Source: Candidatus Micrarchaeota archaeon | GTDB lineage: Archaea > Micrarchaeota > Micrarchaeia > Norongarragalinales > JACRGE01 | Reading direction: 5' to 3' | NCBI GenBank assembly: GCA_016212465.1 | Contig: JACRGE010000017.1 | Span: forward strand, 1-58,210 | Length of the DNA: 58,210 nucleotides | In this document: in pieces, positions 27,254-51,568 of the stretch | Layout: each line of letters begins with the position of its first letter | How positions within the stretch are numbered: the stretch's first letter is position 1 | Notes under the pieces: generated by a model | Told to the model about the DNA's origin: nothing | The model's input: only the letters and a program-made list of their open reading frames with translations | The model's database searches: none | Position numbers and translations under genes: made by a program

Positions 27254-27270
27254 GTTCATGATGTGATTGA

Positions 27271-29128: not shown

Positions 29129-29282
29129 TAGTTTTGTATCCGCTCTGAAAAACGCTTGCGATTCAAACGCCAAAATTTTTTTGCATCATACACTAAAAGC
29201 AATTTTGTCAATCACCTTTTTTGGGACAGTCTTGGCAAAAGCCAAGTTTAAAATAAGGGCTTTTTTAATCTCTATTGGTTTG

Positions 29283-30248: not shown

Positions 30249-30444
30249 ACTGGGAGACTGTCCCATAATTGGGGTTCTCATGCTCTCTCAAACCTGCTTC
30301 GAAAAACACTTGCCTCTGGAAGCATCCGAAGATTTCTCGTTTTGAGCTGAAAACGTATTTCGTCAAACATATTTTTTGGGTGCTCTCGGTTTGTCGAAAG
30401 CATTTAATCGGTTTTCTTCTTTAATAATGAACGGTGGTTTTTTC

Positions 30445-31887: not shown

Positions 31888-31904
31888 TTGAAAAGAGGGA
31901 GAAG

Positions 31905-32729: not shown

Positions 32730-33598
32730 AAGACACAAAAACTGTTTTCGTGACTGGAGCCACTGGCTTTGTGGGCAGGCATCTGTTAGCAGCTGTAATA
32801 CACAAGAGGCTTGCCAATAAGTTCAATTTCATTCTGCTGTCCAGAAGGGAGGTTCCAGTAAACCCAGACTTCCAGCTAGTTGTGGCAGATCTTTGTGATG
32901 AAGACGTTGTAAGGAAGCAGGTAAGGAAATCGGATGTGGTCATTCATCTGGCCTCAGTTTTGGACTCAAGCGACAAAAACCTAGAAAAAGTCAACGTGGA
33001 TGCTTCTTTAGACATCCTCCGCAGTTTGAAAAAAGGTGCAAAATTCATCTTTTTGAGTTCGGCTACTGTTAACTATCCGATCAAAACAAGGTATGCAAAT
33101 TCTAAGCTGATTGTTGAAAAGAGGATAAAAGAATCAAACATTAATTATACCATAATCCGGCCTTCTTGGATATATGGAAACGGCAGCAGAAGTTTTGAGA
33201 AACTTTTGAATTACGCAAAAAACTCCAGAGTAATCCCTGTGATAAACCAGATGATACAACCAGTTTTTGTCGGGGATGTTGTTGATTTAATTATTAACTC
33301 AACAGATAAGTATGATAGAGAAACAATAGAGATAGCTGGTGAGAAAATAGCGTATCAAAGTTTTGTAGAAAGGATTGCTGCTTTCTTTGGTAAAAAACCG
33401 TTGGTTGTTAGACTGCCTTATGTTTTCTTCTGGCTGTTGTTCAATGCCTCGCAGATTCTTCCTATAAAAATATTGACCAAAGATTCGCTTGTGGATTTCG
33501 AGTACTCGACTAACGTGGATCTTAAGTTGTTAAAGAAAAAATACGGCGTCACACCCAAAAGCGTTGATGTCGTCTTGTCTGAGAAGTTGATAGAGTGA
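32726..33598 (+). CDS. NAD(P)-dependent epimerase/dehydratase-family SDR
   Basis: VFVTGATGFVGRHL and YANSKL (YxxxK). 4-nt overlaps with both neighbours. Confidence 0.7.
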   Translation: MKDTKTVFVTGATGFVGRHLLAAVIHKRLANKFNFILLSRREVPVNPDFQLVVADLCDEDVVRKQVRKSDVVIHLASVLDSSDKNLEKVNVDASLDILRSLKKGAKFIFLSSATVNYPIKTRYANSKLIVEKRIKESNINYTIIRPSWIYGNGSRSFEKLLNYAKNSRVIPVINQMIQPVFVGDVVDLIINSTDKYDRETIEIAGEKIAYQSFVERIAAFFGKKPLVVRLPYVFFWLLFNASQILPIKILTKDSLVDFEYSTNVDLKLLKKKYGVTPKSVDVVLSEKLIE

Positions 33599-34608
33599 AG
33601 AGATTTGGGGTTTCTGTTATTGGAGTAGGAGCGATAAGTGAAAGTGCCCACATTCCTAATTTATTGAAGATTCCCGCCTCTAAGATTGTTTCCATTTGTG
33701 ACATCAGGAAAGAGCGCTTGCAGCTGATGGGCGATCGCTTTAACATAACGAAGAGATTCGCTGACTACAGGGACGCGATCGATGACAAAGAGACTGATGT
33801 CGTAGTAGTGGCGACTGACGCCCCCTCGCACGCCAAAATAGTGTTATCTGCATTAGAAAGAGCCAAGCCCGTCTTCGTTGAAAAACCTTTGACGATAAAC
33901 GTAGCGGATGCTGAAAAAATCGTGAAAACGGCTAGACTGAAAAAAATACCATTGATGGTCGGCTACCAGTTGAGATTTTTGCCAAACCACAGAAAAGTGA
34001 AGGAATTGATGCGAAACGGTGAAATTGGTGATATCTATACGGCTCACGTTCGAGCCGAGACCCTTGTCATCAAAGAAAAAGAAACCCTGCTCATTGACTA
34101 TGGGACACATTTCTTTGATCTAATCCGCTATTATTTTGATAATGATCACATAGTATCTATCTCAGGCCAGCTTACTTTAAACAAAAAAGGTCTTCAAGTA
34201 GGTTCAAGCACTTTAATAAAATTTGAATCCGGGATTCATGCCAACATAGAAGCTTACTGGCTCCCGAATTTCAACTGGGGCGTGGTAGACCGGACTCTTG
34301 AGATCTTGGGTTCTAATGGAAAGATATCAACTAAAATGAGCGGTCCAGATATCAGGATATGGCGTGCGAGTTCATTCAGAGACCGGTTGCTGGGTCCACA
34401 AGTCTTCTTGCCTAAAGAGGCGGTGAGCTCTTACACGCCTTTAAGCGATTACTGTTACCATGAAGAGTTAAGGAGCTTTTTCGATTGCTTGGTTAATGGA
34501 AAAGATATGCCGATAAACGCCGAAGACGGGCTTAAAGCATTGAAGATCGCAGACTATACCTTAAAATCCCATTTGGCTGATCAGAAATTTAGGGGTTTAA
34601 AATTATGA
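33595..34608 (+). CDS. Gfo/Idh/MocA family oxidoreductase
   Basis: FGVSVIGVGAISESAHIPNL...PVFVEKPL is the canonical N-terminal Rossmann/EKP motif. Confidence 0.75.
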   Translation: MKRFGVSVIGVGAISESAHIPNLLKIPASKIVSICDIRKERLQLMGDRFNITKRFADYRDAIDDKETDVVVVATDAPSHAKIVLSALERAKPVFVEKPLTINVADAEKIVKTARLKKIPLMVGYQLRFLPNHRKVKELMRNGEIGDIYTAHVRAETLVIKEKETLLIDYGTHFFDLIRYYFDNDHIVSISGQLTLNKKGLQVGSSTLIKFESGIHANIEAYWLPNFNWGVVDRTLEILGSNGKISTKMSGPDIRIWRASSFRDRLLGPQVFLPKEAVSSYTPLSDYCYHEELRSFFDCLVNGKDMPINAEDGLKALKIADYTLKSHLADQKFRGLKL

Positions 34609-35675
34609 TACTAGAGGTATACGACACCGAGGAAGGATATGCCCCAGTTGTGAGAAAAATTTTTGAAAAGCATCTTTCAAGAATTAAGAGGAATTCCCGC
34701 ATCCTTATAAAAGCTGATTTATACGGTGGGGCAAAAAGCCCGGAGAGTGGCGCAGTTACGAACCTGGAACTGGTGGAAGAGCTCGTTCGTGACCTGAATA
34801 AACTCACCCCAAGGGAAATAATAGTCGCAGACTCCGGGAACATCATGCCCACTTTCAAGGCATTTGAGCTTCAAGGTTTTTCTGACCTTAAAACGAGATA
34901 CAGGAACCTCCGCCTTGTGGATTTTGATCTTTCCCAGAAAATAAAAGTGCAGAATGACCGTTTCATAGCAATAAAAAATATTTCCTTACCTGAAGAACTA
35001 ATCTTATGTGATTACTTCATCAACATCGCAAATTTCAAGAGGCACGTTTCTGAAAGAGTGTCTGGTTGCAGCATCAATCTATACAACTGCATTCCAGACA
35101 GGCAAACAAAAATAAGATATTTGCCTATAGTCGGATCTGTTATCAATGATCTTGTCGTTACTACAAAACCTTTTCTGAACATTCTTGATTGCACCATAGT
35201 TTTACAGGGTAGCGGACCAGTTGAAGGGGAACCCGTGAGACTCAATCGTTTAGTTGTAAGCGACGAACCCGCATTGGCTGACGCTGCAGCATGCAAGTTA
35301 ATTGGAGATGACCCAAACAGAGTTCCGCACCTTAGGGAACTCGCTTGTAGAAAATTAAAAAGCAAGAGTCTTGAAGAAATACACCTAGTAAAAAGAGTTG
35401 AGTTCATCAACTCATTTCCGTATTCGCTGGTTAGGTGCAGCCTATTTTTAAAAAAGCTTGGTTTGTACTTGGAGAATTTGGCTTACTTATTTTTCTTGGT
35501 GTCATTTGTTTTTATTTCCATAGGCCCCAAAAACCTGATCAGAGGAAGATGGGTGCCTTTTAATGAGTATTTCAAGACTGCTTGGACCATATTTTCAAAG
35601 TTCGAGGAGCCCAACAACCTGCTTAATTGGAAAATAACTATAAACAAACACGTTGAACAAGAGAGTATTTCATAA
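34605..35675 (+). CDS. DUF362-domain protein with a C-terminal membrane anchor
   Basis: RILIKADLYGG...GAVTNLELVEELV, FINIANFKRH, DCTIVLQGSGPVEGEP, VVSDEPALADAAACKLIG follow the DUF362 pattern as I recall it. One hydrophobic helix near the C-terminus. Confidence 0.6.
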   Translation: MILEVYDTEEGYAPVVRKIFEKHLSRIKRNSRILIKADLYGGAKSPESGAVTNLELVEELVRDLNKLTPREIIVADSGNIMPTFKAFELQGFSDLKTRYRNLRLVDFDLSQKIKVQNDRFIAIKNISLPEELILCDYFINIANFKRHVSERVSGCSINLYNCIPDRQTKIRYLPIVGSVINDLVVTTKPFLNILDCTIVLQGSGPVEGEPVRLNRLVVSDEPALADAAACKLIGDDPNRVPHLRELACRKLKSKSLEEIHLVKRVEFINSFPYSLVRCSLFLKKLGLYLENLAYLFFLVSFVFISIGPKNLIRGRWVPFNEYFKTAWTIFSKFEEPNNLLNWKITINKHVEQESIS

Positions 35676-36870: not shown

Positions 36871-37001
36871 TTTCCCACCAGATTTCTATGAATGCATTTC
36901 TGCCCAGCACACTTCCCTAGATATATATTAAAAATGAGGTTAATAATTCAGGAGATTTAATTGAAATAATCTCCCCAAAATGAACGACTCGCGTGGTTTC
37001 C

Positions 37002-38056: not shown

Positions 38057-40297
38057 ATGGATTTTCACAAAGTGTTTCAAAACAAGCGAGCCGTCGATTT
38101 TGCAGTAATATTGATTTTCGGCACCATCCCATTTATTGCTACTGGCTGGAACGGTTTCATTAACCCCATTGATCAGGACCATCCCTTCTTCGTTTTGGAT
38201 TTCGTAAAGTCCTTGTTTTACATCTGGAACGGCTCTATGGGCTTTGGTCTAGACGCGTCGTTTTCTTTCTCTCATTTCCTTCCCTACGTTCTCCCACTGG
38301 CGTTTCTGAACATCTTCTTTTCTCCTGAGCTGGCTCAAAGGATCTTCTTTATTTTCTTTTTCTCGCTTGGGGGGTGGTCTATGTATTATCTTTTGTCCCA
38401 ACTCTTGGTTCACCGGTACAGTCGTTGGGCCTGTCTTTCTTCCGCATTGTTCTACATGTACAACCCATATAGCATAAATGGAATATTGCGGCATGGATTC
38501 CCCTATGCTGTTCTAAGCATTGTCTCCCTTCCACTACTTCTTGGATTGTATATCGCAGGCTTGAAAAGTAAAAAAAATGCTTTTGCTTATGCAGTTGCAA
38601 TAGGCTTGGTTTCTCTACTCCAGGTTACTGTGAATCCTCAGTGGACGATTAATCAGATGTTTATTCTTTTGTTTTTCTTGGTTTTTTATCTGCTATCCCA
38701 AAACTCAAGAGATGAGAGAAAAAAGGCTTTGAAGTTTACTGCCACTTGCATTGTTCTAGCGCTTATAGTCAATTCTTTTTGGGAGCTGCCACTGCTGGCA
38801 TCCTTGGACTACCACCTGAAATTTCATACGGCCTCCATTAACTTCACCCAGATTCTTGAAAAGCATAGCATGATGTATCCTCCTAGTGGCGTGGTACGGC
38901 AATGGGTGCAAGGATTTTATTACGAAGATTATTATCAGTCCAATGCCAGCATAGTGGTTGGTTTTTTCCTTGTTGTTATTGCTTTTTCAGCGCTCCTCTT
39001 CATGTATACCCCATATACCTTATTCTTTTCTCTTTCTTCAGTGATTTTCTTCTTTCTTACTCTTGGCATCAACTCCCCCCTCAGGGGAATCTACAAATTC
39101 ATTTTCAATCTGCCTTACGGAATAGCGATATTTCCATATGAGCCCCTCAATTTCATCCGTTTTTTTGTGCTTTGCATGGCGGTTTTGCTTGGATTTTCAG
39201 TTGCCGGAGTATCTGATTTCATACGATCAAGGTTTGAAAACCCTCTTCTTACAAAGATTTTTTTTGTTGGTGTGGTTTTGTTAATATTGGCTAACTCCTG
39301 GCCTATGCTTACTGGGGATCTTACGGGCAACATTAAGCCGGTTGAAATTCCAAAAGATTATTATTCTGCTCGGACTTTTCTTTCACGACAAAAGGAGGAC
39401 TTTCGGGTTTTTGTGACTCCGCCACCGCATTGGTTTGTTTACACGAAATACTCATGGGCTCCCTACGCTATGGTAGACGTGTCCTTTAGTTTTCTTGAGA
39501 GGCCCGTTGTTGCAGACCTGCCTACCTCTGGAATTGACGAAATGCAGATAATAAGACTCTATGAATCTTCCTTGTACCAGAATAGATCGCCTCGTTTGGG
39601 CAAACTGCTGGCATTAATGAACATCAAGTACGTTTTGTTCAGGAGAGACGTTGATATAGGCGGAATGGGCCGTTCCCGCCAATACGATCCCGAGATTCTT
39701 TTCAACTCGTTGAGAAGCCAGGAGAACTTGGAGCTTGAAGAAAACTTTGGAAATCTTTATTTTTTCAAGAATGAATGGTACGCCCCCAAGATTTATGCGA
39801 CAACGCGCTTCTTAATGGTGAACAAAACAGAAGAATTGCTGAGCTTCATTGAAAGCAGGGACTTCATTCCCCAAGACCAAGTAATCCTTGGAAACTACGC
39901 TCGCCACCCGCCTAAAATTCCTCCAGTTGAAAACAGTGTCTTCATATCCTATAAAAAAATCAGCCCCACCCATTACGTAGTCACTGTCAATGCCACCTCG
40001 CCATTTTATCTCGTTTTCAATGAAAATTTCCACGGTTACTGGAAGGCCTACATAACCGAAAAAAACAGGATTCTAGGCGTTCCTGAAGTCTTTTGGGCGC
40101 AGTCAATATCAGAAGAAGATCATTATCCAGTGAATACCTATGCGAACGCATGGTTCATTGATAAGACGGGGTCGTACACCCTAAACCTGTATTACTTCCC
40201 CCAAGCGCTTTATGTTGTCGGAATTCTTGTAAGTGCCGCTGCTGTTATACTCTGCGTCGTTTACCTCGTTTTTACTTCTGCTTTTAGACATAAGTAA
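38057..40297 (+). CDS. Large polytopic GT-C-like membrane protein (paralog A), possibly a glycosyl/oligosaccharyl transferase
   Basis: About 13 TM helices with an acidic first loop (NPIDQDH), then a ~300 aa soluble domain and a final TM anchor. Shares collinear blocks with 46297-48480 (IPKDYYSARTFL / YPKDYYALEKFL; MNIKYVLFRRD / INVKYVVLAKE). Confidence 0.55.
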   Translation: MDFHKVFQNKRAVDFAVILIFGTIPFIATGWNGFINPIDQDHPFFVLDFVKSLFYIWNGSMGFGLDASFSFSHFLPYVLPLAFLNIFFSPELAQRIFFIFFFSLGGWSMYYLLSQLLVHRYSRWACLSSALFYMYNPYSINGILRHGFPYAVLSIVSLPLLLGLYIAGLKSKKNAFAYAVAIGLVSLLQVTVNPQWTINQMFILLFFLVFYLLSQNSRDERKKALKFTATCIVLALIVNSFWELPLLASLDYHLKFHTASINFTQILEKHSMMYPPSGVVRQWVQGFYYEDYYQSNASIVVGFFLVVIAFSALLFMYTPYTLFFSLSSVIFFFLTLGINSPLRGIYKFIFNLPYGIAIFPYEPLNFIRFFVLCMAVLLGFSVAGVSDFIRSRFENPLLTKIFFVGVVLLILANSWPMLTGDLTGNIKPVEIPKDYYSARTFLSRQKEDFRVFVTPPPHWFVYTKYSWAPYAMVDVSFSFLERPVVADLPTSGIDEMQIIRLYESSLYQNRSPRLGKLLALMNIKYVLFRRDVDIGGMGRSRQYDPEILFNSLRSQENLELEENFGNLYFFKNEWYAPKIYATTRFLMVNKTEELLSFIESRDFIPQDQVILGNYARHPPKIPPVENSVFISYKKISPTHYVVTVNATSPFYLVFNENFHGYWKAYITEKNRILGVPEVFWAQSISEEDHYPVNTYANAWFIDKTGSYTLNLYYFPQALYVVGILVSAAAVILCVVYLVFTSAFRHK

Positions 40298-40369
40298 ATT
40301 CTGATGCGGTCAGCCATCCTCAGAGATGAGACGCGGCTGGCAAAAAAATCTTTAAGTCTATCAGAAGCA

Positions 40370-40777
40370 TTAGTCGATTACAGGGTAATTGTGCAGGTCT
40401 TTTATTTTCTCTTTGAATGGCACGCTACTGTACTCGACGAAAGTTAGAGTGCCCTCGCCAATGTTTTTCAAGCCGTGGGAAACAAAGGGGGGGATTTCAA
40501 CTAGAACGAAATTGTCGTCGCCCATCTTGATTTCCATGCGTTCGCCGCTCTTTACGTCGACAAGCGCCATCAGGCCCCTTCCCTCTAGCACGCATGCCCA
40601 GTCTCTGGTAATCTTGTGGTAGTGGTTTCCCCTCACGAAACCCGGCTTGCAGGTGGAGGCTATGATGACTCCAAAGCGGTTCGTTTCAATTTCATCCACC
40701 ATTTTAACGAACCAGCCTCGCTCATCAACGGATTTCTCAAGTTTCTTTACCTTTATAAGTTCTGAAATTCCCTGCAT
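40370..40777 (-). CDS. Cupin-fold sugar-nucleotide isomerase/epimerase-like protein (WxcM/FdtA-like)
   Basis: DERGWFVK...VRGNHYHKITRDWACVLEG...IPPFVSHGLKNIGE is typical of RmlC-like cupins found in deoxysugar pathways. Confidence 0.6.
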   Translation of the reverse strand: MQGISELIKVKKLEKSVDERGWFVKMVDEIETNRFGVIIASTCKPGFVRGNHYHKITRDWACVLEGRGLMALVDVKSGERMEIKMGDDNFVLVEIPPFVSHGLKNIGEGTLTFVEYSSVPFKEKIKDLHNYPVID

Positions 40778-40847
40778 TTTAAAACCTTTTTTAAGTTAGT
40801 AAATAAAACATTATAGTATTTAATTGGCTTTCTTTTCCGGTGGGCTT

Positions 40848-41963
40848 ATGACGAGACACATCCCTATAGGCAAGCCTCTTCTCGGCGTGGAAGAAATACG
40901 ATCCGTCTTGAAGGTTTTAGAAAGCGGCGTGTTGAGTGTACCCAGCACCTCTGGGGGGCCAATGATTCAAGCTTTTGAAAAAACCTTGGCTGAGTATGTG
41001 AGATGCAAGCACGCGATTGCCGTAAACTCAGGCACTTCTGCGTTGTCGGTTTCGCTCATGGCATTGGGCGTCAAAGCTGGCGACGAGGTCATCGTTCCAT
41101 CTTTCACCTACGGCGCGACTGCAAACACAGTCCTGCTGCTTGGCGCAAAACCCCTTTTCATTGACATTGACCCAAAAACCTACAACATGGACCCTGATTT
41201 AATCGAGGCGAAAATCACTGGAAGAACGAAAGCAATTGTACCCGTTCACTTGTTCGGCCTTTGCGCAGACATGGACTTGATTAACGAAATCGCCGCGATA
41301 CACGGACTGCATGTCATCGAGGATGCTGCACAAGCGCTGGGCTCCGAGTACAAGGGAAAGAAAGCTGGAAATCTGGGAGATGTGGGTTGCTTCAGCTTTT
41401 ACCCGGGGAAGGTGATGACCACAGGAGAAGGCGGCGCCATCACAACCAACAATGACGAACTTGCGTTGAGGATGCGGATGATTAGAAACCACGGCCAGGA
41501 AAAGGCTTATGAGTTCGCGGTTTTGGGAAGTAACTACAGGATGCCCGAAATGGAAGCAGCCATTGGAGTAGAACAGTTGAAGAAACTACCCTCATTTCTT
41601 GAAGCGAGAAGAAACAACGCCCGAAGGTTAGGTGAAACGTTGCAATTCGTTTCATCCCTTACTCTTCCCTTCGAGAATGAATTATTCAAGCACAACTGGT
41701 ATCTCTATACTATAAAGTTGGATGCGTCGATTGACAGGGATACTGTTGTGCAGAAGCTTAATGCCGACGGAATAGAGGCGCGGGTTTATTACTCCGCGCC
41801 AGTTCACACAACGCCCCTTTACAGGAGGTTGGGTTTCGCAACCGAGCACCTGCCGTTCACGATGGAAGCATCGAAAAGCATATTTTCGCTGCCCGTTCAT
41901 CCCGGCGTTTCACCACAAGACGTGGATTTCATGACTGGTGCTGTTAAAAAAATTCTCGGTTAA
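40848..41963 (+). CDS. DegT/DnrJ/EryC1/StrS-family sugar aminotransferase
   Basis: IPIGKPLLGVEE..., AVNSGTSAL, FSFYPGKVMTTGEGGAITTN (PLP Lys block). Start at the ATG after GGTGGG. Confidence 0.85.
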   Translation: MTRHIPIGKPLLGVEEIRSVLKVLESGVLSVPSTSGGPMIQAFEKTLAEYVRCKHAIAVNSGTSALSVSLMALGVKAGDEVIVPSFTYGATANTVLLLGAKPLFIDIDPKTYNMDPDLIEAKITGRTKAIVPVHLFGLCADMDLINEIAAIHGLHVIEDAAQALGSEYKGKKAGNLGDVGCFSFYPGKVMTTGEGGAITTNNDELALRMRMIRNHGQEKAYEFAVLGSNYRMPEMEAAIGVEQLKKLPSFLEARRNNARRLGETLQFVSSLTLPFENELFKHNWYLYTIKLDASIDRDTVVQKLNADGIEARVYYSAPVHTTPLYRRLGFATEHLPFTMEASKSIFSLPVHPGVSPQDVDFMTGAVKKILG

Positions 41964-41978
41964 CGCAGGTGGTGTTTT

Positions 41979-42953
41979 ATGAGAGTGCTTGTCACGGGTG
42001 CAGCAGGCCTTTACGGCGTTCACACCGTCGAACGATTGTGCAAGAGGGACGACGTAGAGAGAGTAATCGGAGTAGACGACCTTTCAAGGAATTTCCTCGA
42101 TACGGACCCCTTCCAGCTCGTTGACTCGCCGGAAGTTCGGGAAAAGTTCGAGTTCATCAAAATGGACTTCCGCGGACTGGACAATATCCTCCTGAACAAG
42201 CTCGACGTAGATGTGGTCATTCACTACGCAGCCTACGTCTCGATTCCTGAATCCATGGAAGTGCCCGACAAGTACTTCGAGGTCAACGAGCTTGGCACGT
42301 TCAATCTCTGTCAAAACCTGCTTGCAACCCGCAACCAGCCCTTTCTCATTTATGCGTCTTCTCCCGAAGTTTACGGCACGCCTATAATGAAGCCAATGGA
42401 CATCGACCATCCCATGTATCCACGCAGCTTCTATGCCGTTACAAAGCTGGCTGCGGAAAAGCACTGCCATGTGCTCCACCAGTGGTACAACTATCCCGTT
42501 GCCATCGTGCGCAACTTCAACACGTTCGGCGAAAACCAGAACGTTTGGAGCTATTCGGCTGTAATCTGCAATTTCATAATGCGCGCCTTGAGGAATGAGC
42601 CGCTCATAATCCACAACGACGGCAGGCAAACGCGCGATTTTCTTTACGTGAAGGATGCGGTGCGCGCCTACGAAATGATCGTCGAGAAAAGAAAGCAGTG
42701 CAAAGGGGAAATATTCAACATCGGCACCGGCAAGGAAACTTCCATTAGCGACTTGGCAGACATAATCATAAGACTGACGCACTCGCACTCGGGCAAGGAA
42801 TATTCCGCAGGAAGGTCTGCGGACCTGGCCGGGTTGTGCGCAGACATTTCAAGGGCTAGAGAAAAGATTGGCTGGATGCCAGAGTATTCCCTCGAAGACG
42901 GTCTGTTGAGGACAATCGACTGGTATAGTAAATACGTCCAGAAAGGCGCTTGA
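41979..42953 (+). CDS. NAD-dependent NDP-sugar dehydratase/epimerase (extended SDR)
   Basis: MRVLVTGAAGLYGVHTV, YAVTKLAAEK (YxxxK), about 324 aa. The long antisense ORF 42084-42788 is a GC artefact. Confidence 0.75.
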   Translation: MRVLVTGAAGLYGVHTVERLCKRDDVERVIGVDDLSRNFLDTDPFQLVDSPEVREKFEFIKMDFRGLDNILLNKLDVDVVIHYAAYVSIPESMEVPDKYFEVNELGTFNLCQNLLATRNQPFLIYASSPEVYGTPIMKPMDIDHPMYPRSFYAVTKLAAEKHCHVLHQWYNYPVAIVRNFNTFGENQNVWSYSAVICNFIMRALRNEPLIIHNDGRQTRDFLYVKDAVRAYEMIVEKRKQCKGEIFNIGTGKETSISDLADIIIRLTHSHSGKEYSAGRSADLAGLCADISRAREKIGWMPEYSLEDGLLRTIDWYSKYVQKGA

Positions 42954-43046
42954 ATGTTCCTCGGACTCGATGCTGAAGAAATAACAATCTACAAGCTTTC
43001 GTTTTGAGCTTAAATAAATAAATTTCCTGAATTATTTGGTGAAGGA

Positions 43047-43772
43047 ATGCCAGTTTCAAGTCCTGAACAGGAGAGAGTTGAACGTCTCGGTGAATCCATT
43101 AACTACACCGCTGGATTCAACGAAAAAAACAGCGAGTTTATTTCCCGCGAGGCGGCGCATTTTTATGGGGGCGATTCGTGTCTGGTACTGGGTCCCTCAG
43201 AGTCGGGCGAGTTCGAGAAGACGCTTTCCTCTCATTTCAAGAGAGTAGTCTGCGTAGACGGTTCCTCCCGTATAATCAATGAGCTTAGGCGAAAGCTTCC
43301 CGCATACGAATACAATATTTCCTTGTTCGAGGACATACAAATTGAGGAAAAATTTGATGTAATACTCCTTATGCATGTACTTGAACACGTACGCGATCCC
43401 CAGCAGATCCTTTCGCTATGCAAGAAGTGGCTGGCGAAGGAGGGGGTGGTGATAGTAGCAACGCCCAACGCATATTCGATCAACAGACTGCTTGGTGTGA
43501 AAATGGGCCTTCTTTCTGAAGCCCACGAACTGCACGAGAATGACTTGCGGATTGGCCACAGGCGCGTATATGATTTTGATTCCCTTGAGAGGGATATTAA
43601 GGCGGCCGGTTTCACCGTAGTTGAAAAGCAGGGGGTTTTGTTCAAACCTTTCCCTAATTCCCAAATGGAGTTGTTGAGCAACGGGCAGATTGAGGGGTTG
43701 TACCTTCTCGGCAAGGACTTCCCCAATTATTGCAATAGTTTGTTTTTTGTCATTAAACCCAATGAGCTTTGA
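43047..43772 (+). CDS. Class I SAM-dependent methyltransferase
   Basis: DVILLMHVLEHVRDPQQIL and LAKEGVVIVATPN are typical of Methyltransf_11/23-type enzymes. Confidence 0.65.
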   Translation: MPVSSPEQERVERLGESINYTAGFNEKNSEFISREAAHFYGGDSCLVLGPSESGEFEKTLSSHFKRVVCVDGSSRIINELRRKLPAYEYNISLFEDIQIEEKFDVILLMHVLEHVRDPQQILSLCKKWLAKEGVVIVATPNAYSINRLLGVKMGLLSEAHELHENDLRIGHRRVYDFDSLERDIKAAGFTVVEKQGVLFKPFPNSQMELLSNGQIEGLYLLGKDFPNYCNSLFFVIKPNEL

Positions 43773-44009
43773 TATTGAAAAAAGTTTTCTTGGACTTTTC
43801 TTCTAGGGGAGTTTTATGGACGATGACCTCTCGCTGCTGAAGTAACAATCTTCAAGGAACTTTTATCAAAAAGCAGTTCATTGATTACTGAAAAAGAATG
43901 AACGGAACAATATGCAGAGTAAACCATTTGGCAACGAAAACCGTATCGTCTTTGATTATTCTACTCGGCGTTCACGGAAATCGAAGAGACTCAAAGCAGA
44001 GATGTTTTA

Positions 44010-44945
44010 ATGAAAACAATACTCATTACGGGAGTCGGAAGCGCAGGCGCTCAAAATATCGTAAAAGCCTTCCGGAAATCCGAGGAGGAAACACGCTTTA
44101 TTGGAATTGATTGCGATGCCATTAATGCAGGTAAGTTCCTCGTTGATAAGTTCATACCAGGGCCTTCGGCAAAAGACCCCAAATTCTATGAAAAGATAAC
44201 CTCTATCCTCGAGGAATCAAAACCAGATCTTTTAATACCCGTAGCGCCTCCAGAACTTCCAATACTGGCCCTCTACAAGAATGAGCTTGAAAAAAAAACT
44301 AAGGTACTGATCTCAGACTATGAGACCATAAACTTATTTTCCTCAAAAAAAAGAACCCTTGACTTCTTCATAAAAATAGGCGTCCCTAATGAAGGATACT
44401 ATAGACGCTTGTCAGAGATAAAATTTCCCGCATTCGCAAAGCTTGACGGAAGCTCTGGCTCCTTCGATTCAATGAAAATTATGGATAAAGAGGATCTTGA
44501 TTATTACCTTAAAAAATTTCCAGAATCAATAATAATGCCATTTATACGGGGGACTGAATATTCCGTTGATTGCTTCTGCGACAAAGACGGAGACCTTGTG
44601 GGTTTTGTCCCCCGAAGGAGAATTCAGGTGAAAGCGGGTGTCGCGACGAAAGGAATCACTGAAGAAATAAATAACCTTGAAAACCACTTGAAGAAAATCA
44701 CGAAAAGCATAGAGCTGATAGGACCATTCAACTTGCAGTTATTCGTAAAAGAAGATGGTTCGTTATCCTTCTTTGAAATAAACCCGAGGATCGGTGGTTC
44801 TTTCATACACTCAATAGAAGCTGGGCTTGATATCGCACAGTACATCATTGATTTCATCAACGACAAGAAAAGCAAGCCACTTACCAGCTTTAAAAAGAGG
44901 CTCATAATGGTGCGTTCATGGCAAGAGCATTACGAAGAAGCATAA
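44010..44945 (+). CDS. ATP-grasp domain ligase
   Basis: MKTILITGVGSAGAQNIV pre-ATP-grasp domain and the C-terminal FFEINPRIGGS motif. Confidence 0.7.
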   Translation: MKTILITGVGSAGAQNIVKAFRKSEEETRFIGIDCDAINAGKFLVDKFIPGPSAKDPKFYEKITSILEESKPDLLIPVAPPELPILALYKNELEKKTKVLISDYETINLFSSKKRTLDFFIKIGVPNEGYYRRLSEIKFPAFAKLDGSSGSFDSMKIMDKEDLDYYLKKFPESIIMPFIRGTEYSVDCFCDKDGDLVGFVPRRRIQVKAGVATKGITEEINNLENHLKKITKSIELIGPFNLQLFVKEDGSLSFFEINPRIGGSFIHSIEAGLDIAQYIIDFINDKKSKPLTSFKKRLIMVRSWQEHYEEA

Positions 44946-45523
44946 TACTGGACTTTGATGGGACAATAGTAGATTATAGGGAGCGTTTTTACCAAGCATA
45001 CTGCAACTTCGCAAAAAAACCCTTAGACTGCAAAACATTCTGGGGATTGAGAGCACAAAACAAGAAGATGGCTGAGCTATTGGACTCGCCCCATTTCCTA
45101 AAAGATTTTGATATGGCCTTGGAGTCGCCTGACTTGCTACAAGAAGACAAATTACTCTGCCCTCCCGAATTTTTGCACGCCCTCAAGAAAAAATATAATC
45201 TAGTCGTTATTACTAACCGAAAGAATGAAAAAGCATTGCTTTTGCAAATAAATACCTTGGGAATTCAAGATTGTTTTTCTGAGATAATGACAACAGCAGA
45301 CCTTGATAAACAAGCAATTATCTCACAATATTCAAAAAAAGATGTCGTTGTCGGAGACTCTGAAGAAGAAATAATTGCAGGTAACAAATCAGGGTTGATT
45401 ACTATAGGCGTTCTTTCAGGATTAAGAACTAGAGAACAACTGTTAAAGGCAAATCCGCGGGTTATAATAGAATCAATAATGGAATTGCCAAAAGTGCTTG
45501 AAGGCCTTGACTTCTTGGTGTGA
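44918..45523 (+). CDS. HAD-superfamily hydrolase/phosphatase
   Basis: IILDFDGTIVD (DxDxT) and VVGDSEEEIIAGNKSG (motif IV). 28-nt overlap with the ATP-grasp gene. Confidence 0.7.
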   Translation: MARALRRSIILDFDGTIVDYRERFYQAYCNFAKKPLDCKTFWGLRAQNKKMAELLDSPHFLKDFDMALESPDLLQEDKLLCPPEFLHALKKKYNLVVITNRKNEKALLLQINTLGIQDCFSEIMTTADLDKQAIISQYSKKDVVVGDSEEEIIAGNKSGLITIGVLSGLRTREQLLKANPRVIIESIMELPKVLEGLDFLV

Positions 45524-45671
45524 AATCGCTGCCTTTTGAGCGCAGGTATTAGATCCTTCCCTATTTATGTACTTAGAAAAAAGGATGTAGTATCTTAAAT
45601 TAAAATAAACTCCTCTCTCGGGAATGTTCAAAATACTACCGAACGCGTTTTCATTATTATTTTTTTTAAAA

Positions 45672-46244
45672 TCAGTAGTCTTCTAGACAGTACCCCTCTC
45701 TCGTAGTTGGTAATTTCGCTATTTTTATTAGCGTACTAGCTAGAATCAAAAAAATAGCCACTTCAACGTAAAAATCTGAACTTCTCTTTTCATGTTGAAT
45801 TAGAAAAAACGCACCCAAACCAAAAAGCAAAAGAGCGAGTATAACTAGCACATCCGCAATATTGGCGGCCAGCATTCTCCAAAGCTTTACTAATAGTTCA
45901 CCCCCTTGGAGAAACCTATTAATTTTTTCCTCGTATAAAAAAACTGCTTCCCTGGTATTATTTCTTAGCGTTAGTCTTAACTCATCCAAAGTATCCCGGT
46001 AGGTATATTTGAGGTTATACGCCAGTCTTGGCGCATACGATGATGTTACAGCTTTTCTTAATACCCACAAGAATATACCAGCTAAAAAAACAATCACAAA
46101 AAGAAGAAAAAAAGTATTAGCAAGTCTTAATCGATGCGTGTCAATGGCTATGAGGTATGCAAAAAGGAAGATAATCGCATTTAGGAGAATTATACGGTGA
46201 GGCAAGAAATTCAATATTTTTAATAGTGTGGAAGCCATATCCAT
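45672..46244 (-). CDS. Four-helix membrane protein, unknown function
   Basis: Only hydrophobicity is recognisable. Transcribed divergently from GT-C paralog B. Confidence 0.4.
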   Translation of the reverse strand: MDMASTLLKILNFLPHRIILLNAIIFLFAYLIAIDTHRLRLANTFFLLFVIVFLAGIFLWVLRKAVTSSYAPRLAYNLKYTYRDTLDELRLTLRNNTREAVFLYEEKINRFLQGGELLVKLWRMLAANIADVLVILALLLFGLGAFFLIQHEKRSSDFYVEVAIFLILASTLIKIAKLPTTREGYCLEDY

Positions 46245-46296
46245 AATAAGGTCTTCTAGATATTTATTTGCTCTTCATGCCTCGAGGCGGTGGTGG

Positions 46297-48480
46297 ATGA
46301 ATTTAACCAAGGTATTAAACTCAAGGAATCTTTTTGCAATTATTGCTGAGAATTACCCCCTCTTGCTGTTTTTTATTCTTTCGTTGTTGATAATGGACGG
46401 TCTTCTCTTGCCAGGGAACGTTTTATCCTTGGACATGTCGGGCCTAGAGTCAACAAACACGAGGCTTCAAGACACTTTTTATGGGATTAACGAGCATTGG
46501 AATAATGGATTCACCGTCAGTGCAGTTTTTGAAGTTGCGAAGCTTCCACTGTACCTTGTTATCAGCTTTTTTTTGTTGATTCTTCCCGCTTGGGTCATCC
46601 AGAAGGCGATACTGATTGCTATCCTCTTCGGTTCCGCAGTTTCAGCTTACTTGGCATGCCCAGCGGATAAGCCAGGTAAGACGTTTGCAGGAGTTCTTTA
46701 CATGATTAACCCCTTTTTGTACATCCGTTTCCTAGCCGGGCATTGGATGTTTCTTCTGGCCTATGCAATCGCTCCCCTTGCAGTGATGTCCTACTTTCGT
46801 TTCCTCGATAGTAAAAAAACTGTGCATGTGATTGAGTCTGCATTTTTAACGTTCTTAGTCGCGGTTTTTGAAATTCGTGTTTTCTTACTGTTGCTTTTTC
46901 TTTTTTTACTTTTCTTCTTTCTAAAAGTTTATGCCTCCAGAGACTGCAAAAAACTTCTGAGCGTATCTGCTGTTTTTACGCTGGTTTTCATGCTACTCAA
47001 TCTATTCTGGCTCGTTCCCTTGGCCACCAGTAATTTCGTGCCAGAAGTAGTTTCTTTAGCTGACACAATGCTTTTTGCAACCAAGCACTCAACTTTCAAT
47101 GTGCTTTTCAACGCTGCAGCCTTGCACGGCTTTTGGCGTGGTGGATACCTCCTACCATACAAGATGTTGCATACTTGGTTGTTCTTTGGTTTGTTTGCCG
47201 TCATACTCTATCTTGCAGTTAACGGTTTCGTCCACTATTACCGGAATGAAAAAATAGGAGTGCGGGTAAAGGCAGTTGCGATTGCTGGAATTGCGGCACT
47301 AGTTTTGGCAGTTGGAAGCACTGCCGAGCCATTCAAGTCCCTTTTCAGTTTTCTCTTTGAAAACATTTTTTTCTTCCGGGGTTTCCGAGAACCACACAAG
47401 TTTCTTGCACTCTTAGCATTTGCCTACTCTTTTCTCGGCGGACTGGGTTTAAACGCCTTGCAGCGACAACTGAGGGAAGTCCGGGCCTTTAGGTTCAAGG
47501 GCTTCAGTCTTTCCGGAAACAAGATTGCTTTAGTTTTGGGCATCTTTGCTTTGCTTGTGCCAATGGTTTATACTTTCACGATGTTCAACGGCTTCTGGGG
47601 TCAACTGGAAGGCGTCAATTATCCAAAAGATTATTACGCCCTTGAAAAATTCTTGAATGAAGACCCTAACGAGTTCAATACCCTCTTTTTCCCTTGGCAC
47701 ATGTATATGGACTTTAAATGGAACCCAAAGCAACGTATCGCAGCTCCCTTTGCTTCATTTTTCTCAAAGCCAGTTATTCAAGGAGACACGCTCGAAAGTG
47801 GCGGCATCTACTCCCAGTCAACCAATCCCACATCCAAATACATTGAATTCCTGTTGGCGAACAAGGGAAACAGAACGAACTTCGGCAACCTACTCTCCGT
47901 CATTAACGTAAAATACGTTGTTTTGGCAAAAGAAGCGGATTACCGGAGCTATTCTTTCTTGTACAACCAAACAGACCTCGAGCTTGTGAAAGAATCCTCG
48001 AATTTAATTGTGTTTAAGAATAAAGTGAAGACTGCAAAATTATATGCGTCAAACGAACTTCTGGAAATAAATGACTGGAAGGAACTGTTGGAATTAAGCA
48101 AGCAAACCCCGTTGAATACTCTAGCGTTTGAGCTAAACAAAACCAAAGCAGAAAAAAGCGCTTTAAACGCCACTTTTGTGACTGAAAACGCATTCAAATA
48201 CCTTAAATACGTGAAAAAAAGCCCCACAGAACTTCAATTGAATGAAATTCCCACGAAGAAATACGTTGTTTTCACCAGCAACTACGCGGAAAACTGGCGT
48301 CTGGACGGAGAAAAACCATTCAAAAACGCTGGAGTAACAAACGCTTTTGAAGTAAAAAACAGCATCAACGGCCTCAAGATAACGAATGAAGGGTTCAACT
48401 ACTACCTCATCGGCTATGGCATTTCGTTCATTACCTTAATAATCCTAGGAGTGTACTGGTGGAGGGAAAGAAAGAAATAA
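46297..48480 (+). CDS. Large polytopic GT-C-like membrane protein (paralog B)
   Basis: Same architecture as 38057-40297. Start at the ATG preceded by GGCGGTGGTGG; the track ORF begins at 46228. Confidence 0.55.
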   Translation: MNLTKVLNSRNLFAIIAENYPLLLFFILSLLIMDGLLLPGNVLSLDMSGLESTNTRLQDTFYGINEHWNNGFTVSAVFEVAKLPLYLVISFFLLILPAWVIQKAILIAILFGSAVSAYLACPADKPGKTFAGVLYMINPFLYIRFLAGHWMFLLAYAIAPLAVMSYFRFLDSKKTVHVIESAFLTFLVAVFEIRVFLLLLFLFLLFFFLKVYASRDCKKLLSVSAVFTLVFMLLNLFWLVPLATSNFVPEVVSLADTMLFATKHSTFNVLFNAAALHGFWRGGYLLPYKMLHTWLFFGLFAVILYLAVNGFVHYYRNEKIGVRVKAVAIAGIAALVLAVGSTAEPFKSLFSFLFENIFFFRGFREPHKFLALLAFAYSFLGGLGLNALQRQLREVRAFRFKGFSLSGNKIALVLGIFALLVPMVYTFTMFNGFWGQLEGVNYPKDYYALEKFLNEDPNEFNTLFFPWHMYMDFKWNPKQRIAAPFASFFSKPVIQGDTLESGGIYSQSTNPTSKYIEFLLANKGNRTNFGNLLSVINVKYVVLAKEADYRSYSFLYNQTDLELVKESSNLIVFKNKVKTAKLYASNELLEINDWKELLELSKQTPLNTLAFELNKTKAEKSALNATFVTENAFKYLKYVKKSPTELQLNEIPTKKYVVFTSNYAENWRLDGEKPFKNAGVTNAFEVKNSINGLKITNEGFNYYLIGYGISFITLIILGVYWWRERKK

Positions 48481-48712
48481 CCTGCTTTGAGCGTTCAGAG
48501 AACGAGCTTGACAAGGAGCTTTGCGCATTTCAGTTTTTGGTGTTGGTTTTTCTTCAAGAGTTGGTCAGCCAGAGTCATAAGATGCTGGACAAAACCTGCA
48601 AGGCTGAGTAAAGGCAAAGGTTTAAAAACTCTTTTCTTATAATCTAAAAAGAGAAATAAAAACAGTGGGCAGAGTTGATTGTAGTTGACTGTTATTGGGT
48701 GGAGGAGTATCC

Positions 48713-51568
48713 ATGATGTCTGTAAATGAATTTAAACAAAGGCTGGAGAAAAAGGGAAATCTGCTTTCTATATTTATTACGAGCCTAATAATTGCCATCC
48801 TGCTTTTTACTGTCCCAGCGCAAGCCTTCACCATGGGTACTCCAGTCGTCCAAGCTTCTGGCGTGAGCTTCGTCACCATCAGGATTCCGTTTACGAAAGT
48901 TACGGATGAAGTGATTGATTACAACAATGTGAGTGCGATCTTGTACGCAAGCGGTATTACCCCAGTCACTGGAACACTGCTTTCCTGTACTACTAACGGC
49001 ACTTCTGACTATTCTTATGGATACGATGTTTTTGGATACGGATACGGTTATGACTACGGGACGTTGAGTTATGGATATAATGAAGAAGGGGGGTATGGGT
49101 ACAGCTACGGCTATGGTTACCTACGTGATGTGTCTGGGACATTTGACTGCACCTTCAACTTCACTGGCCTGCCAGCCGGAACCTACTCCAACGCGCAAGT
49201 AGCTGGCTACATCAACGGCGTGTTGATTGACACGAAGACCGTTGATTCTGCATTCACTGTACTCCCAATCTCAGGCGACCCCACGATAAACTGGGTTTCT
49301 GTAGCGGAGCAGGATATCTTCTATTCGTTTGTGTCAGGCAACAACGTAATAAACCTGAGGGTTAACGCAACCAATGTAACTACAACTGACTGGGTTACCG
49401 CCAACTTCTCCGGCTTGAAAGCAGGATTGAGCTGTGACTCCAACCCCGCCAACGGGACGTTTAACCTCACTTACAACGTCTCCTTGAAACTGTATGTGGG
49501 TGCATGCGATGTCACTGCGGAAGCGGTCTCCAGCGACTTTGCAGGAGCACAGGTTCCAGTGACTATATACAAGTCCAGTGACCCAACCAAGACGGCAGTT
49601 GGTTCAAAGATACTCGTCCTCTACAACATGACCACGCCTCCGTCAGACCCGACGGGATGCCACGCCTTTGGAAGCGGAACCATCAACATGAGCACCGTCA
49701 CGGACTTCGGCAGCGTGAACCTTGTTCTATACCATCAACTGAACGGAAACTCAACGTGTGACCCCAATAATGAACTTCCTGGGGATGGACTAAGGAATGT
49801 AATGATGTGGAACTTCACTTCCGTGAACATGAGCACTTATGAACAGGCACAGAGAATGAGTACGCTGAGGACAGCAATTCAAGTGAACATCACCGGACCC
49901 GGAAAATACGGCAATTCAAGAATATATGTTAACGTGAGTGCATTCACGGCATTGGGTACGGCAACGAAGATCGCGATGTATAACCTGCCGTTCCAAACTG
50001 CGCCAAACATCGTGGCAGACAACTCCTCAAACGCCGTAACCAGCATCGTTTGGGCAAGCAACGGCTACGACTCTACGTTCGGGATGTGGACAGGCAACCT
50101 CTCATTCACAGTCAGCAACTTCTCAGGCTATAATATCACGGACAACATGACGCCCCTGGTCACATTCGTTTCGCCGGTGCAAGGCGCAACAGTCAACGAC
50201 ACGACTCCCAACATCAACATCACAATCAATGGGACTGGAACAACCGTAAGCGCGGTCTACATGTTCATCAACAGCATGTTAAATGCGACCTATTACTCCA
50301 ACGGCACTACTTCAAGTGGGTTCCAGTGCGCGAATGTTTCAACTGGCTCGGAAGCAATCTTCTGCAACTACACCGTCACTTCAGACTTGGGCAACAGCAC
50401 CACTCCAAAGAACTTGTCAGTAATCGCATACGATTACGGAACAACCGCGCCTGGAAACAAACAAGTTTCCTGGATTAACTTCACGGTGTTGCCTCCAGGC
50501 TATATGCTGTTGAACACAACTACTACAGTGAATTCAGCTCAGACTGAAGTCGTGGTAACATCTGACAGCGGCGCTGCCAGCGTAACTGTTCCAAGCGGAA
50601 TCAATGCCACCCTCAACCTGTCTGGCGTGCAAAACAACACGGCCTACGTGAACGCAACATTGACTAACGCACTCAATGTAAGCACTCAAGCAAGCGTAAA
50701 CGTTTCAATCCAATTCCCAGCAGGCTTGGTAATAAATTCCTCTCCAAGCTGGACTGGTGACATCAACCTGCCGCAGGTAATGGGGTCTGCTGCAGTTACT
50801 CCGGCGACACCCTCTGGATATACCTTGTCTGGTGTTGAAGCAATCGAACTTGGCTTCGGCAATGTGACGCTGAACTTCAGCAAAGGAGTAAGGGTATTGT
50901 TTACAGGAAAAGCCGGAAAGAGCCTTGGGTACAGCAGGAACGGCGTATTTACCGCTGTTTCAACAACCTGTGCCAACGATTCGCAGGTAGCAGGAGATGC
51001 GCTTTCAGCAGGAGGAGACTGCAAGATAGACGTGGGAAGCGACTTGGTGATGTGGACGAAGCACTTCACTGAATTCGTTACCTATACGCTTACCGCTCCA
51101 ATTACGGGCGGCACGCCATCAGTACCCACAGGCGGCGGCACGAACGCTACTACTACCACCATTCCTGTCACGAGCACGACTACTGGAAGGACAACCAGCA
51201 CAACAATTCGGGGAACAACCACCACCGCTGAAGTGACGCTCGGTGAAGCAACCGCAAAGATCAAGGAAGCAGAGACTCTGTTGGCTGACGCAAAGGCAGC
51301 AAACTTGGACACGAGCACTGCAGAAGCACTGTTGGCAGAGGCAAAGAGCTTGGCCAACGCAGGCAAGTACCGGGAAGCACTGGCGAAAGCAATTGAAGCG
51401 ATAAACAACTTGAAGAGCCTGATGGCTGGAGTGCCTTCGCCTTCACCAGAAGCAGGAGCAATCGCAGGCATGGATACAGTCATGTGGTTGATCGTAATCG
51501 TGGCAGTGCTGTTCATACTCGCAGGCTACTACCTCGTTTCCCAGAAAAAACCACGCCACAGGAGATAA
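48713..51568 (+). CDS. Surface (S-layer-like) glycoprotein with signal peptide and C-terminal membrane anchor
   Basis: Signal peptide ...LLFTVPAQA, about 44 N-x-S/T sequons (hand count), a Gly/Tyr repeat, a Thr-rich tract, an Ala/Lys/Glu helical segment, then a TM helix plus KKPRHRR. Strong RBS GGTGGAGG. Confidence 0.75.
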   Translation: MMSVNEFKQRLEKKGNLLSIFITSLIIAILLFTVPAQAFTMGTPVVQASGVSFVTIRIPFTKVTDEVIDYNNVSAILYASGITPVTGTLLSCTTNGTSDYSYGYDVFGYGYGYDYGTLSYGYNEEGGYGYSYGYGYLRDVSGTFDCTFNFTGLPAGTYSNAQVAGYINGVLIDTKTVDSAFTVLPISGDPTINWVSVAEQDIFYSFVSGNNVINLRVNATNVTTTDWVTANFSGLKAGLSCDSNPANGTFNLTYNVSLKLYVGACDVTAEAVSSDFAGAQVPVTIYKSSDPTKTAVGSKILVLYNMTTPPSDPTGCHAFGSGTINMSTVTDFGSVNLVLYHQLNGNSTCDPNNELPGDGLRNVMMWNFTSVNMSTYEQAQRMSTLRTAIQVNITGPGKYGNSRIYVNVSAFTALGTATKIAMYNLPFQTAPNIVADNSSNAVTSIVWASNGYDSTFGMWTGNLSFTVSNFSGYNITDNMTPLVTFVSPVQGATVNDTTPNINITINGTGTTVSAVYMFINSMLNATYYSNGTTSSGFQCANVSTGSEAIFCNYTVTSDLGNSTTPKNLSVIAYDYGTTAPGNKQVSWINFTVLPPGYMLLNTTTTVNSAQTEVVVTSDSGAASVTVPSGINATLNLSGVQNNTAYVNATLTNALNVSTQASVNVSIQFPAGLVINSSPSWTGDINLPQVMGSAAVTPATPSGYTLSGVEAIELGFGNVTLNFSKGVRVLFTGKAGKSLGYSRNGVFTAVSTTCANDSQVAGDALSAGGDCKIDVGSDLVMWTKHFTEFVTYTLTAPITGGTPSVPTGGGTNATTTTIPVTSTTTGRTTSTTIRGTTTTAEVTLGEATAKIKEAETLLADAKAANLDTSTAEALLAEAKSLANAGKYREALAKAIEAINNLKSLMAGVPSPSPEAGAIAGMDTVMWLIVIVAVLFILAGYYLVSQKKPRHRR

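Follow-up and report, generated by a model that had tools for sequence, protein, structure and literature searches.

The closest described relatives of the proteins considered here are mycobacterial. According to the paper reporting its structure (6W98), AftD takes its sugar from a lipid-monophosphate donor and adds it to a glycan acceptor at the outer face of the membrane. The enzyme works in complex with TmaT. MmpA (NCgl2761/Rv0226c) is homologous to the first 11 transmembrane (TM) helices of AftD, and in the Mycobacteriales aftD and mmpA share one conserved tmaT locus with the methyltransferase MtrP and a predicted glycosyltransferase, mutants of the locus genes having phenotypes in common (PMC8698533). 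In archaea, AglB has so far been the only well-understood surface transferase, and the enzymes of O-glycosylation, together with at least one enzyme of AglB-independent N-glycosylation, are still to be identified (PMC8241124). Haloferax volcanii adds the last mannose of its N-glycan through AglD, a family 2 glycosyltransferase (GT2), the flippase AglR and the outer-face transferase AglS (PMC3871713), so that a second GT-C enzyme beside AglB is not unusual in archaea. The present analysis concerns two open reading frames (ORFs), A and B, in a 58,210-nucleotide stretch of DNA from a Candidatus Micrarchaeota archaeon (assembly GCA_016212465.1, contig JACRGE010000017.1, positions 1 to 58,210), hereafter called the window. 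Our preferred reading, held with moderate confidence, takes A and B for GT-C glycosyltransferases that belong to the AftD/MmpA family, work outside the cytoplasm and form a conserved two-gene module, which would transfer a lipid-phosphate-linked sugar to a surface glycan. The pair provides concrete candidates for outer-face glycan chemistry in archaea.

Protein A (ORF A): 38057..40297, + strand, 746 amino acids, predicted A-type (AftD-like) GT-C membrane glycosyltransferase
Protein B (ORF B): 46297..48480 (ATG) or 46228..48480 (GTG), + strand, 727 amino acids from the ATG, predicted B-type (MmpA-like) GT-C membrane glycosyltransferase

A preliminary description of the window had set out both ORFs with their coordinates and lengths, which are confirmed here. 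For B, the ATG at 46297 is favoured by the alignment of homolog N-termini, and the GTG start at 46228 would run into the divergent gene at 45672-46244. The two proteins are 25% identical over ~500 amino acids (BLASTP, E 3e-20), the hidden Markov models (HMMs) of the two clades cross-detect the other paralog at 161-219 bits, and neither HMM matches any further ORF of the window. The collinear blocks noticed earlier were recovered in the alignment, PKDYY at A432 and B443 and N[IV]KYV[LV] as NIKYVL in A and NVKYVV in B. We regard A and B as distant paralogs whose similarity lies far beyond chance. In the AlphaFold2 models each has ~12 TM helices instead of the ~13 first counted, while the rest of the architecture stands as it had been described, with a soluble external domain (~440-697 in B and ~430-712 in A, roughly 260-280 amino acids) and a C-terminal TM helix (700-726 in B, 714-745 in A).

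The family assignment separates the two proteins. A matches Pfam PF11847 (GT-C_AftD, the former DUF3367) with 36.1 bits, the cut-off being 26; 53 of 60 A-type relatives also match this model, and the A-type profile finds the AftD sequence at E 2.9e-30 over ~550 residues. B matches the NCBIfam model NF053599 (MmpA family trehalose lipid delivery protein) at E 2.9e-38, over positions 7-494 of the 543 in the model, which each of the 56 B-type relatives matches as well at E <= 1e-5 (best 2.5e-63); A reaches only 15.1 bits. Among PDB sequences, AftD was reached solely by a mixed profile and by the A-type profile and not by the B-type profile, and single-sequence phmmer searches with A and B found nothing there. 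On these profile comparisons A belongs to the AftD clade and B to the MmpA clade, and the split is systematic. Relatives are plentiful. An exhaustive search with A gave 3,700 representatives at E <= 1e-3 and 402 at <= 1e-30, the 7 returned by a word-indexed search being a sensitivity artefact; B gave 118 word-index matches and 253 confirmed loci among GTDB species genomes. It has been said that MmpA lacks homologs outside corynebacteria and mycobacteria (PMC8698533). The B-type matches contradict this statement, as homologs evidently exist well beyond those groups. Several B-type homologs bear precomputed PF11847, and some archaeal members, such as a Ca. Methanoperedens protein, are named "alpha-(1->3)-arabinofuranosyltransferase family protein" at NCBI, so that the GT-C assignment is already in the databases. 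The GT-C interpretation of the preliminary description was therefore right, although already implicit in Pfam (PF11847) and NCBI annotation. What goes beyond that description is the division into AftD-like and MmpA-like clades, the directional pairing of A-type and B-type genes with Wzx across two domains of life, and a residue pattern that is intact in B and lacks the Lys in A.

The predicted structures point in the same direction. AlphaFold2 models were built with family alignments and compared with the PDB by Foldseek, a check that had been proposed at the outset, and mycobacterial AftD (6W98) was the best match of both paralogs (A, E 2.7e-13; B, E 3.6e-10; TM-score normalised to the query 0.54). 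The model of B has a predicted local distance difference test score (pLDDT) of 91.5 and a predicted TM-score (pTM) of 0.92, that of A a pLDDT of 81.2 and a pTM of 0.85, with poor confidence in its first loop (pLDDT < 50 at residues 32-42). Every significant match is a GT-C enzyme, and the top 20 for B and top 22 for A contain nothing else; below AftD they include STT3, PglB, AglB, AftA, ALG12/ALG9, DPY19, ArnT (among the matches of B) and Pmt4. A transporter or protease fold, which would have spoken against the first impression of GT-C-like proteins, was rejected, as transporters appear only at E > 0.05 with a TM-score of ~0.1. The AftD structure paper lists as GT-C hallmarks the juxtamembrane helices between TM1 and TM2, a proline kink in TM3, an extended TM7 with a loop helix, and a soluble domain. 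The model of B has TM1 at 20-37, short helices at 53-93 and TM2 at 98-120, a TM3 divided into helices 125-136 and 139-146 by a break at the invariant N138-P139, and an extended TM7 at 217-244 followed by short helices at 254-290 and a next helix at 293-314, and A has N136-P137 in the same layout. These hallmarks are present in the model of B. The GT-C fold is strongly supported for both proteins.

Five AftD residues, K39, D41, E251, K361 and D474, were found essential by mutagenesis in the same paper (native numbering; the PDB chain index is native + 3). In the B-type clade (56 sequences) D46, N138-P139, R364, K368 and P466-W467-H468-x-Y470 are invariant. Profile alignment places B D46 at AftD D41, B D256 at E251 (Asp in 46 of the 56) and B K368, within FREPHKF, at K361; AftD K39 is without a counterpart in B, and D474 is not alignable. 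Because D46, D256 and K368 match residues essential in AftD, B looks catalytically competent. The acidic first external loop had been singled out earlier through the string IDQDH in A, and its conservation was checked: alongside the invariant D46 of the B-type proteins, D39 of A is Asp in 51 and Glu in 3 of 60 relatives (54/60 acidic), whereas D41 of A, the second Asp of that string, is not conserved.

The most telling observation is the arrangement of the genes. We compared 87 related loci, 80 from GTDB genomes and 7 from metagenome contigs, spanning Ca. Methanoperedens, other Methanosarcinales, Archaeoglobus, DPANN lineages, Thermoproteota, Thermoplasmata and Haloferax, and among bacteria Chloroflexota, Planctomycetota, Patescibacteria and Actinomycetota. 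Among the 52 loci whose upstream sequence extends for 6 kb or more, 27 have an A-type gene upstream of the B-type gene and on its strand, which in 7 cases overlaps the B-type gene or sits within 10 bp of it; none of the 50 loci with 6 kb or more of downstream sequence has one downstream. A and B are a conserved, directional gene pair in archaea and bacteria. In Ca. Methanoperedens nitroreducens (L042) the order is GT2, GT2, radical S-adenosylmethionine (SAM) enzyme, GT2, A, B, which is that of the window minus an inserted sugar block. The pairing extends to divergent partners, as in Haloferax sp. S1W, where the B-type gene is directly preceded by that of a 928-amino-acid A-type relative (hhalign 98%, E 1.5e-13), and in Streptomyces caniscabiei, where the 852-amino-acid upstream protein is partly A-type (hhalign 94.8%). 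A supposed synteny with a Methanoperedens contig that carries an aminoacyl-tRNA synthetase, a Wzx and a B-type gene was rejected, since BLAST against the retrieved loci finds nothing that matches the synthetase-like ORF of the window.

In the window, A and B lie within a ~26 kb glycan-biosynthesis cluster, the other genes of this stretch being as follows.

Wzx/AglR-type flippase candidate with ~12 TM helices: 22320..23606, - strand (Pfam Polysacc_synt and Polysacc_synt_3)
GT2 of the polyprenyl-phosphate sugar synthase type, candidate: 23748..24515, + strand (PDB sequence matches, NCBIfam)
UDP-glucose/GDP-mannose dehydrogenase, sugar-1-phosphate nucleotidyltransferase and epimerase/dehydratase, for nucleotide-sugar supply: 24620..28221, + strand (Pfam)
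Membrane-bound GT2 (395 amino acids), B12-binding radical SAM enzyme (HpnJ-like, 503 amino acids) and GT2 (274 amino acids): 29061..32729, + strand (Pfam, NCBIfam)
Epimerase, GFO/IDH/MocA oxidoreductase and DUF362 protein with a C-terminal TM helix: 32726..35675, + strand (Pfam, TM scan)
Family 4 glycosyltransferase (GT4), directly upstream of A together with the next gene: 35707-36870, - strand (Pfam)
SAM methyltransferase, adjoining A: 36993-37808, + strand (Pfam)
Sugar-modification block between A and B, comprising a cupin, a DegT aminotransferase, a 4,6-dehydratase/epimerase, a methyltransferase, an ATP-grasp ligase and a HAD phosphatase: 40370..45523, no single strand assigned to the block (Pfam)
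Small membrane protein of 190 amino acids with ~4-5 TM helices, divergent from B: 45672..46244, - strand (TM scan)

Co-occurrence with glycan clusters in relatives, another check suggested earlier, was borne out, with Wzx, GT2, GT4 and methyltransferase genes as the usual neighbours. With the window proteins as queries, a Wzx-like gene was found in 28 of the 87 loci, often directly abutting the B-type gene, the same GT2 type in 25, a second GT2 type in 22 and GT4 in 18; an AglB-like gene was found in none of the 87. An unbiased Pfam census, which took in 135 ORFs neighbouring the genes of 19 loci and lists only families present in at least 4 ORFs, counted 18 GT2, 17 GT4, 12 methyltransferases, 6 epimerases/dehydratases and 6 Wzx. 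The closest full-length homolog of A (P0002) also has a GT4 and a methyltransferase for neighbours. The GT2 at 23748-24515 has as its best PDB sequence matches the Pyrococcus dolichyl-phosphate-mannose synthase 5mlz (E 9.5e-17), ArnC and the family-2 glycosyltransferase sll0501 (5ekp), the last of which we take to be GtrB, and as its best NCBIfam models PgfS, PpgS and ArnC, all under cut-off. It is accordingly listed as a candidate, either for making a lipid-phosphate sugar donor or for initiating a lipid-linked glycan. The presence of a Wzx-type flippase and a DPM1/ArnC-type GT2 in the same cluster would account for the supply of a lipid-linked donor.

Taken with the family assignment, these genes allow a model to be drawn. 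The fold, the family, the conservation of active-site residues and the gene neighbourhood are shown by the analysis, and the donor, the acceptor, the order of action and the way in which A and B share the work are inferred. The soluble enzymes of the cluster would produce modified nucleotide sugars, from which the DPM1/ArnC-type GT2 (23748-24515) would place a sugar on dolichyl phosphate at the cytoplasmic face; the remaining GT2 and GT4 enzymes, with the methyltransferases, may lengthen and decorate the lipid-linked sugar. The Wzx/AglR-type flippase (22320-23606) would then bring it to the outer face, where A and B, by way of the Asp in loop 1 and, for B, of the Arg/Lys motif essential in AftD, would pass the sugar to a glycan acceptor held by the C-terminal external domain. 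This acceptor could be an exported surface polysaccharide, or a glycan on surface proteins such as a 957-amino-acid protein encoded next to B.

Several points weigh against this model. Searches of the literature yielded no experimental or biochemical work on any archaeal member of the family. B has no match in Pfam and, at 131.8 bits, falls below the 210-bit equivalog cut-off of NF053599, so that it is to be taken as a relative of MmpA and not as an equivalog, and MmpA itself is without shown glycosyltransferase activity and has been proposed as a membrane anchor (PMC8698533). The loop-1 Asp is aligned to AftD D41 by the mixed profile and two residues earlier by the A-type profile, and the register of this loop is uncertain because the two alignments disagree. 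In A, the family motif F-R-x-P-x-K-F reads FPYEPLNF (residues 359-366), which puts Asn at the position of the essential AftD K361 and Pro at that of the conserved Arg. The Pro is common to A and its seven closest relatives, whereas at the Lys position those seven mostly have Lys or Arg and Asn occurs in A alone; as its relatives retain a basic residue, the subclade as a whole is not degenerate. A appears to retain the loop-1 Asp, as D39 or as D41 according to the alignment used, and without the Lys it may not be fully active.

The loss of the Lys in A and of the Arg from its subclade, together with the anchor role proposed for MmpA (PMC8698533) and the action of AftD in complex with TmaT, could be taken to mean that either protein, or both, lacks catalytic activity and serves as a scaffold or regulator in a complex for envelope assembly, A in particular being a pseudo-enzyme partner of B. 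We consider this quite improbable, as the Asp, Arg and Lys are invariant in the B clade across archaea and bacteria, which is hard to explain without catalysis, and as A keeps the conserved loop-1 Asp and its closest relatives have Lys or Arg where it has Asn. A purely structural role thus seems unlikely for B and conceivable for A. Seen from the mycobacterial side, the retention of AftD-essential residues in the B clade, with an A-type gene habitually just upstream, suggests that MmpA works as an enzyme alongside AftD instead of serving as a passive anchor, and it is through MmpA that a comparison of A and B bears on tuberculosis biology.

A further point against the model concerns the donor. 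The one DPM1-type GT2 might, in the manner of AglJ, initiate a dolichyl-phosphate-linked oligosaccharide, and transfer of the glycan as a block would then be favoured instead: A and/or B would polymerise the flipped oligosaccharide, standing in for Wzy, or ligate it to a final acceptor, which, were it a protein, would make them a second, AglB-independent oligosaccharyltransferase. B-type genes very often abut a Wzx-type flippase, the typical handler of oligosaccharide-lipids, and the structural matches next below AftD are STT3, PglB and AglB (E 1e-7 to 1e-5 for both A and B). Neither a phosphoglycosyltransferase nor a Wzy-like polymerase was seen in the window cluster, and neither these nor STT3 or O-antigen ligase families reach 4 of the 135 census ORFs, although rarer Wzy or phosphoglycosyltransferase genes would be missed at that threshold. 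Moreover, Haloferax volcanii possesses an AglB-independent transferase the gene of which is still to be identified (PMC3892788; PMC8241124). However, AftD, the closest relative, moves single sugars from a monophosphate donor, A and B contain no W[WYF]D[YWFH] motif and no STT3 Pfam match, and they match neither Wzy_C nor O-antigen ligase Pfam families even at E up to 1. No B-type homolog attributed to Hfx. volcanii is found among the haloarchaeal matches, so that no tie to its orphan pathway (agl5-agl15) could be established; haloarchaeal pairs do adjoin Wzx, GT2-GT4 fusion and sulfatase-like genes. We regard oligosaccharide transfer as unlikely, though a rival to be taken seriously. It is about equally tentative to suppose that the ordered pair, acting with a Wzx flippase and with no need of AglB, Wzy or phosphoglycosyltransferase, constitutes a self-contained and widespread machine for attaching or polymerising lipid-linked surface glycans, possibly as a protein glycosyltransferase independent of AglB (O-linking to Thr-rich stalks, or serving as a second N-linking enzyme) or as a new surface-glycan polymerase. 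If that were true, MmpA, which is essential in M. tuberculosis and whose function is unassigned, would be a true glycosyltransferase working with AftD.

The surface protein next to B and the AglB of the window bear on a further possibility.

Surface glycoprotein candidate of 957 amino acids, with an N-terminal signal/anchor, sequons, a Thr-rich stalk, a coiled-coil-like segment and a C-terminal TM helix: 48695..51568, + strand
AglB/STT3 oligosaccharyltransferase: 3858..6632, - strand (Pfam STT3 33.4 bits, TIGR04154 73.7 bits, WWDYG at residue 663)

It had been proposed that the paralogs are protein O-glycosyltransferases acting on the Thr-rich stalk of this neighbour, and there is some basis for the idea, as B ends 215 bp upstream of a gene whose product has 17 Thr within 30 residues, and as the PMT family consists of GT-C enzymes that O-glycosylate proteins. 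Yet the Thr-rich stretch, though present as claimed, is not the dominant feature of the protein, which is above all rich in N-sequons (43 N-X-S/T against 16.3 +/- 3.4 in shuffles). A check of co-occurrence with Thr-rich surface proteins, likewise suggested, found a Thr-rich ORF of at least 200 amino acids in only 6 of the 87 loci, and relatives of the surface protein itself occur in only 2. PMT structures rank far below AftD and the oligosaccharyltransferases in Foldseek (Pmt4 at rank 20 for B, E 3.7e-3; Pmt1-Pmt2 for A, E 0.41), A and B have no PMT, PMT_2 or MIR Pfam match, AftD acts on glycans, and bacterial members of the family stand in polysaccharide-type clusters, for example with a pyruvyl transferase in Streptomyces. 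O-glycosylation of the stalk by A and B therefore seems very improbable indeed, and in general the specific functional proposals of the preliminary description are not favoured by the patterns of co-occurrence. On the preferred model, in which A and B extend a surface glycan, the 957-amino-acid protein would be a possible acceptor of the cluster glycan. No Pfam family matches it; a Tyr/Gly-rich segment lies near its N-terminus (YGYDVFGYGYGYDYGTLSYGYNEEGGYGYSYGYGY) and an Ala/Glu/Lys-rich helical segment ahead of the C-terminal TM helix. The canonical AglB with WWDYG, placed earlier some 30 kb off, was located ~31 kb upstream of A, separate from the cluster. It is divergent, scoring 74 bits against a cut-off of 450 with TIGR04154 (archaeosortase-A-associated STT3), and its WWDYG is intact. 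A and B share the GT-C fold of STT3, AglB and PglB, and differ in the absence of WWDYG and of an STT3 match.

Comparison with the characterised systems shows where the archaeal pair departs from them. The GT-C fold, the loop-1 Asp and the R..K motif are common to AftD (PF11847) and its family. However, AftD is ~1,400 amino acids long, contains three carbohydrate-binding modules (CBMs) and ends in a bundle of five helices to which acyl carrier protein binds, whereas A (746 amino acids) and B (727 amino acids) have one external domain and a single C-terminal TM helix, with no CBM or F5/8 Pfam match. A also differs in the Asn at the K361 position, and, as the archaeal host is without arabinogalactan, donor and acceptor must be other than those of AftD. 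MmpA resembles B in that B and all its relatives match the MmpA model; unlike MmpA, B has ~160 extra C-terminal residues forming a beta-rich domain and a TM anchor, and the known phenotype of MmpA concerns the acetylation and transport of trehalose mycolates, lipids absent from archaea. The Mycobacteriales locus parallels the A/B pair and its GT4 and methyltransferase neighbours, and the archaeal pair looks like a compact relative of the aftD-mmpA arrangement. By analogy, the cluster would also recall AglD, AglR and AglS, in that a GT2 loads dolichyl phosphate, a Wzx-like protein moves the product and a multi-TM transferase extends an exported glycan independently of AglB. The likeness to AglS is a functional analogy only, and the window has two transferases, of an AftD-related family. 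The three-component systems with which bacteria modify periplasmic glycans, Gtr (GtrA/GtrB/GtrC) and ArnC/ArnT, are built on similar lines, from a GT2 that makes the polyprenyl-phosphate sugar, a flippase and a GT-C transferase. They employ small GtrA- or ArnE/F-type flippases and one GT-C enzyme, whereas in the window the flippase is of the Wzx type and the GT-C enzymes are two paralogs in a fixed order.

Some smaller features of the cluster may be added. The block at 40370-45523 resembles a pathway for an N-acylated amino-deoxy sugar, and since A-type and B-type genes are < 1 kb apart in many relatives, it looks like lineage-specific cargo; most relatives lack such a block between the two genes. 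The 190-amino-acid membrane protein (45672-46244) matches no Pfam or NCBIfam family, and its membership of the system is uncertain; genes of like size in two related loci (L001, L005) suggested a conserved partner, an idea dropped when neither BLAST nor phmmer found similarity. The ORF at 21168-22292, convergent with the Wzx gene, encodes 374 amino acids with ~6-7 TM helices and a Pro/Ala/Lys-rich C-terminal tail, and has no Pfam or NCBIfam match. The DUF362 protein is encoded at 34605-35675, and DUF362 genes also occur near B-type genes in L001 and L076.

Among the related loci, the haloarchaeal module of Haloferax sp. S1W (L077, 887-11971) consists of Wzx, a GT2-GT4 fusion (672 amino acids), sulfatase-family and phosphodiesterase-family proteins, the 928-amino-acid remote A-type protein and the B-type protein; similar modules are found in L055, L067 and L071, and the arrangement recalls sulfated haloarchaeal glycans. 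The Streptomyces caniscabiei locus (L006, 777-9650) has Wzx, GT2, GT4, polysaccharide pyruvyl transferase, the 852-amino-acid remote A-type protein and a B-type protein of 549 amino acids, the length of MmpA, and looks like a secondary cell-wall polymer or exopolysaccharide cluster. Finally, the radical SAM enzyme of the window, whose best NCBIfam match is HpnJ (156 bits), belongs to a trio of membrane GT2, B12-radical SAM enzyme and GT2. L042 keeps this order upstream of its A/B pair, and the trio is found in L057 and L081 as well. It accompanies A/B pairs in Methanoperedens, in Methanolobus and in one genome of the Thermoproteota, and its recurrence suggests an unusual, conserved sugar modification.

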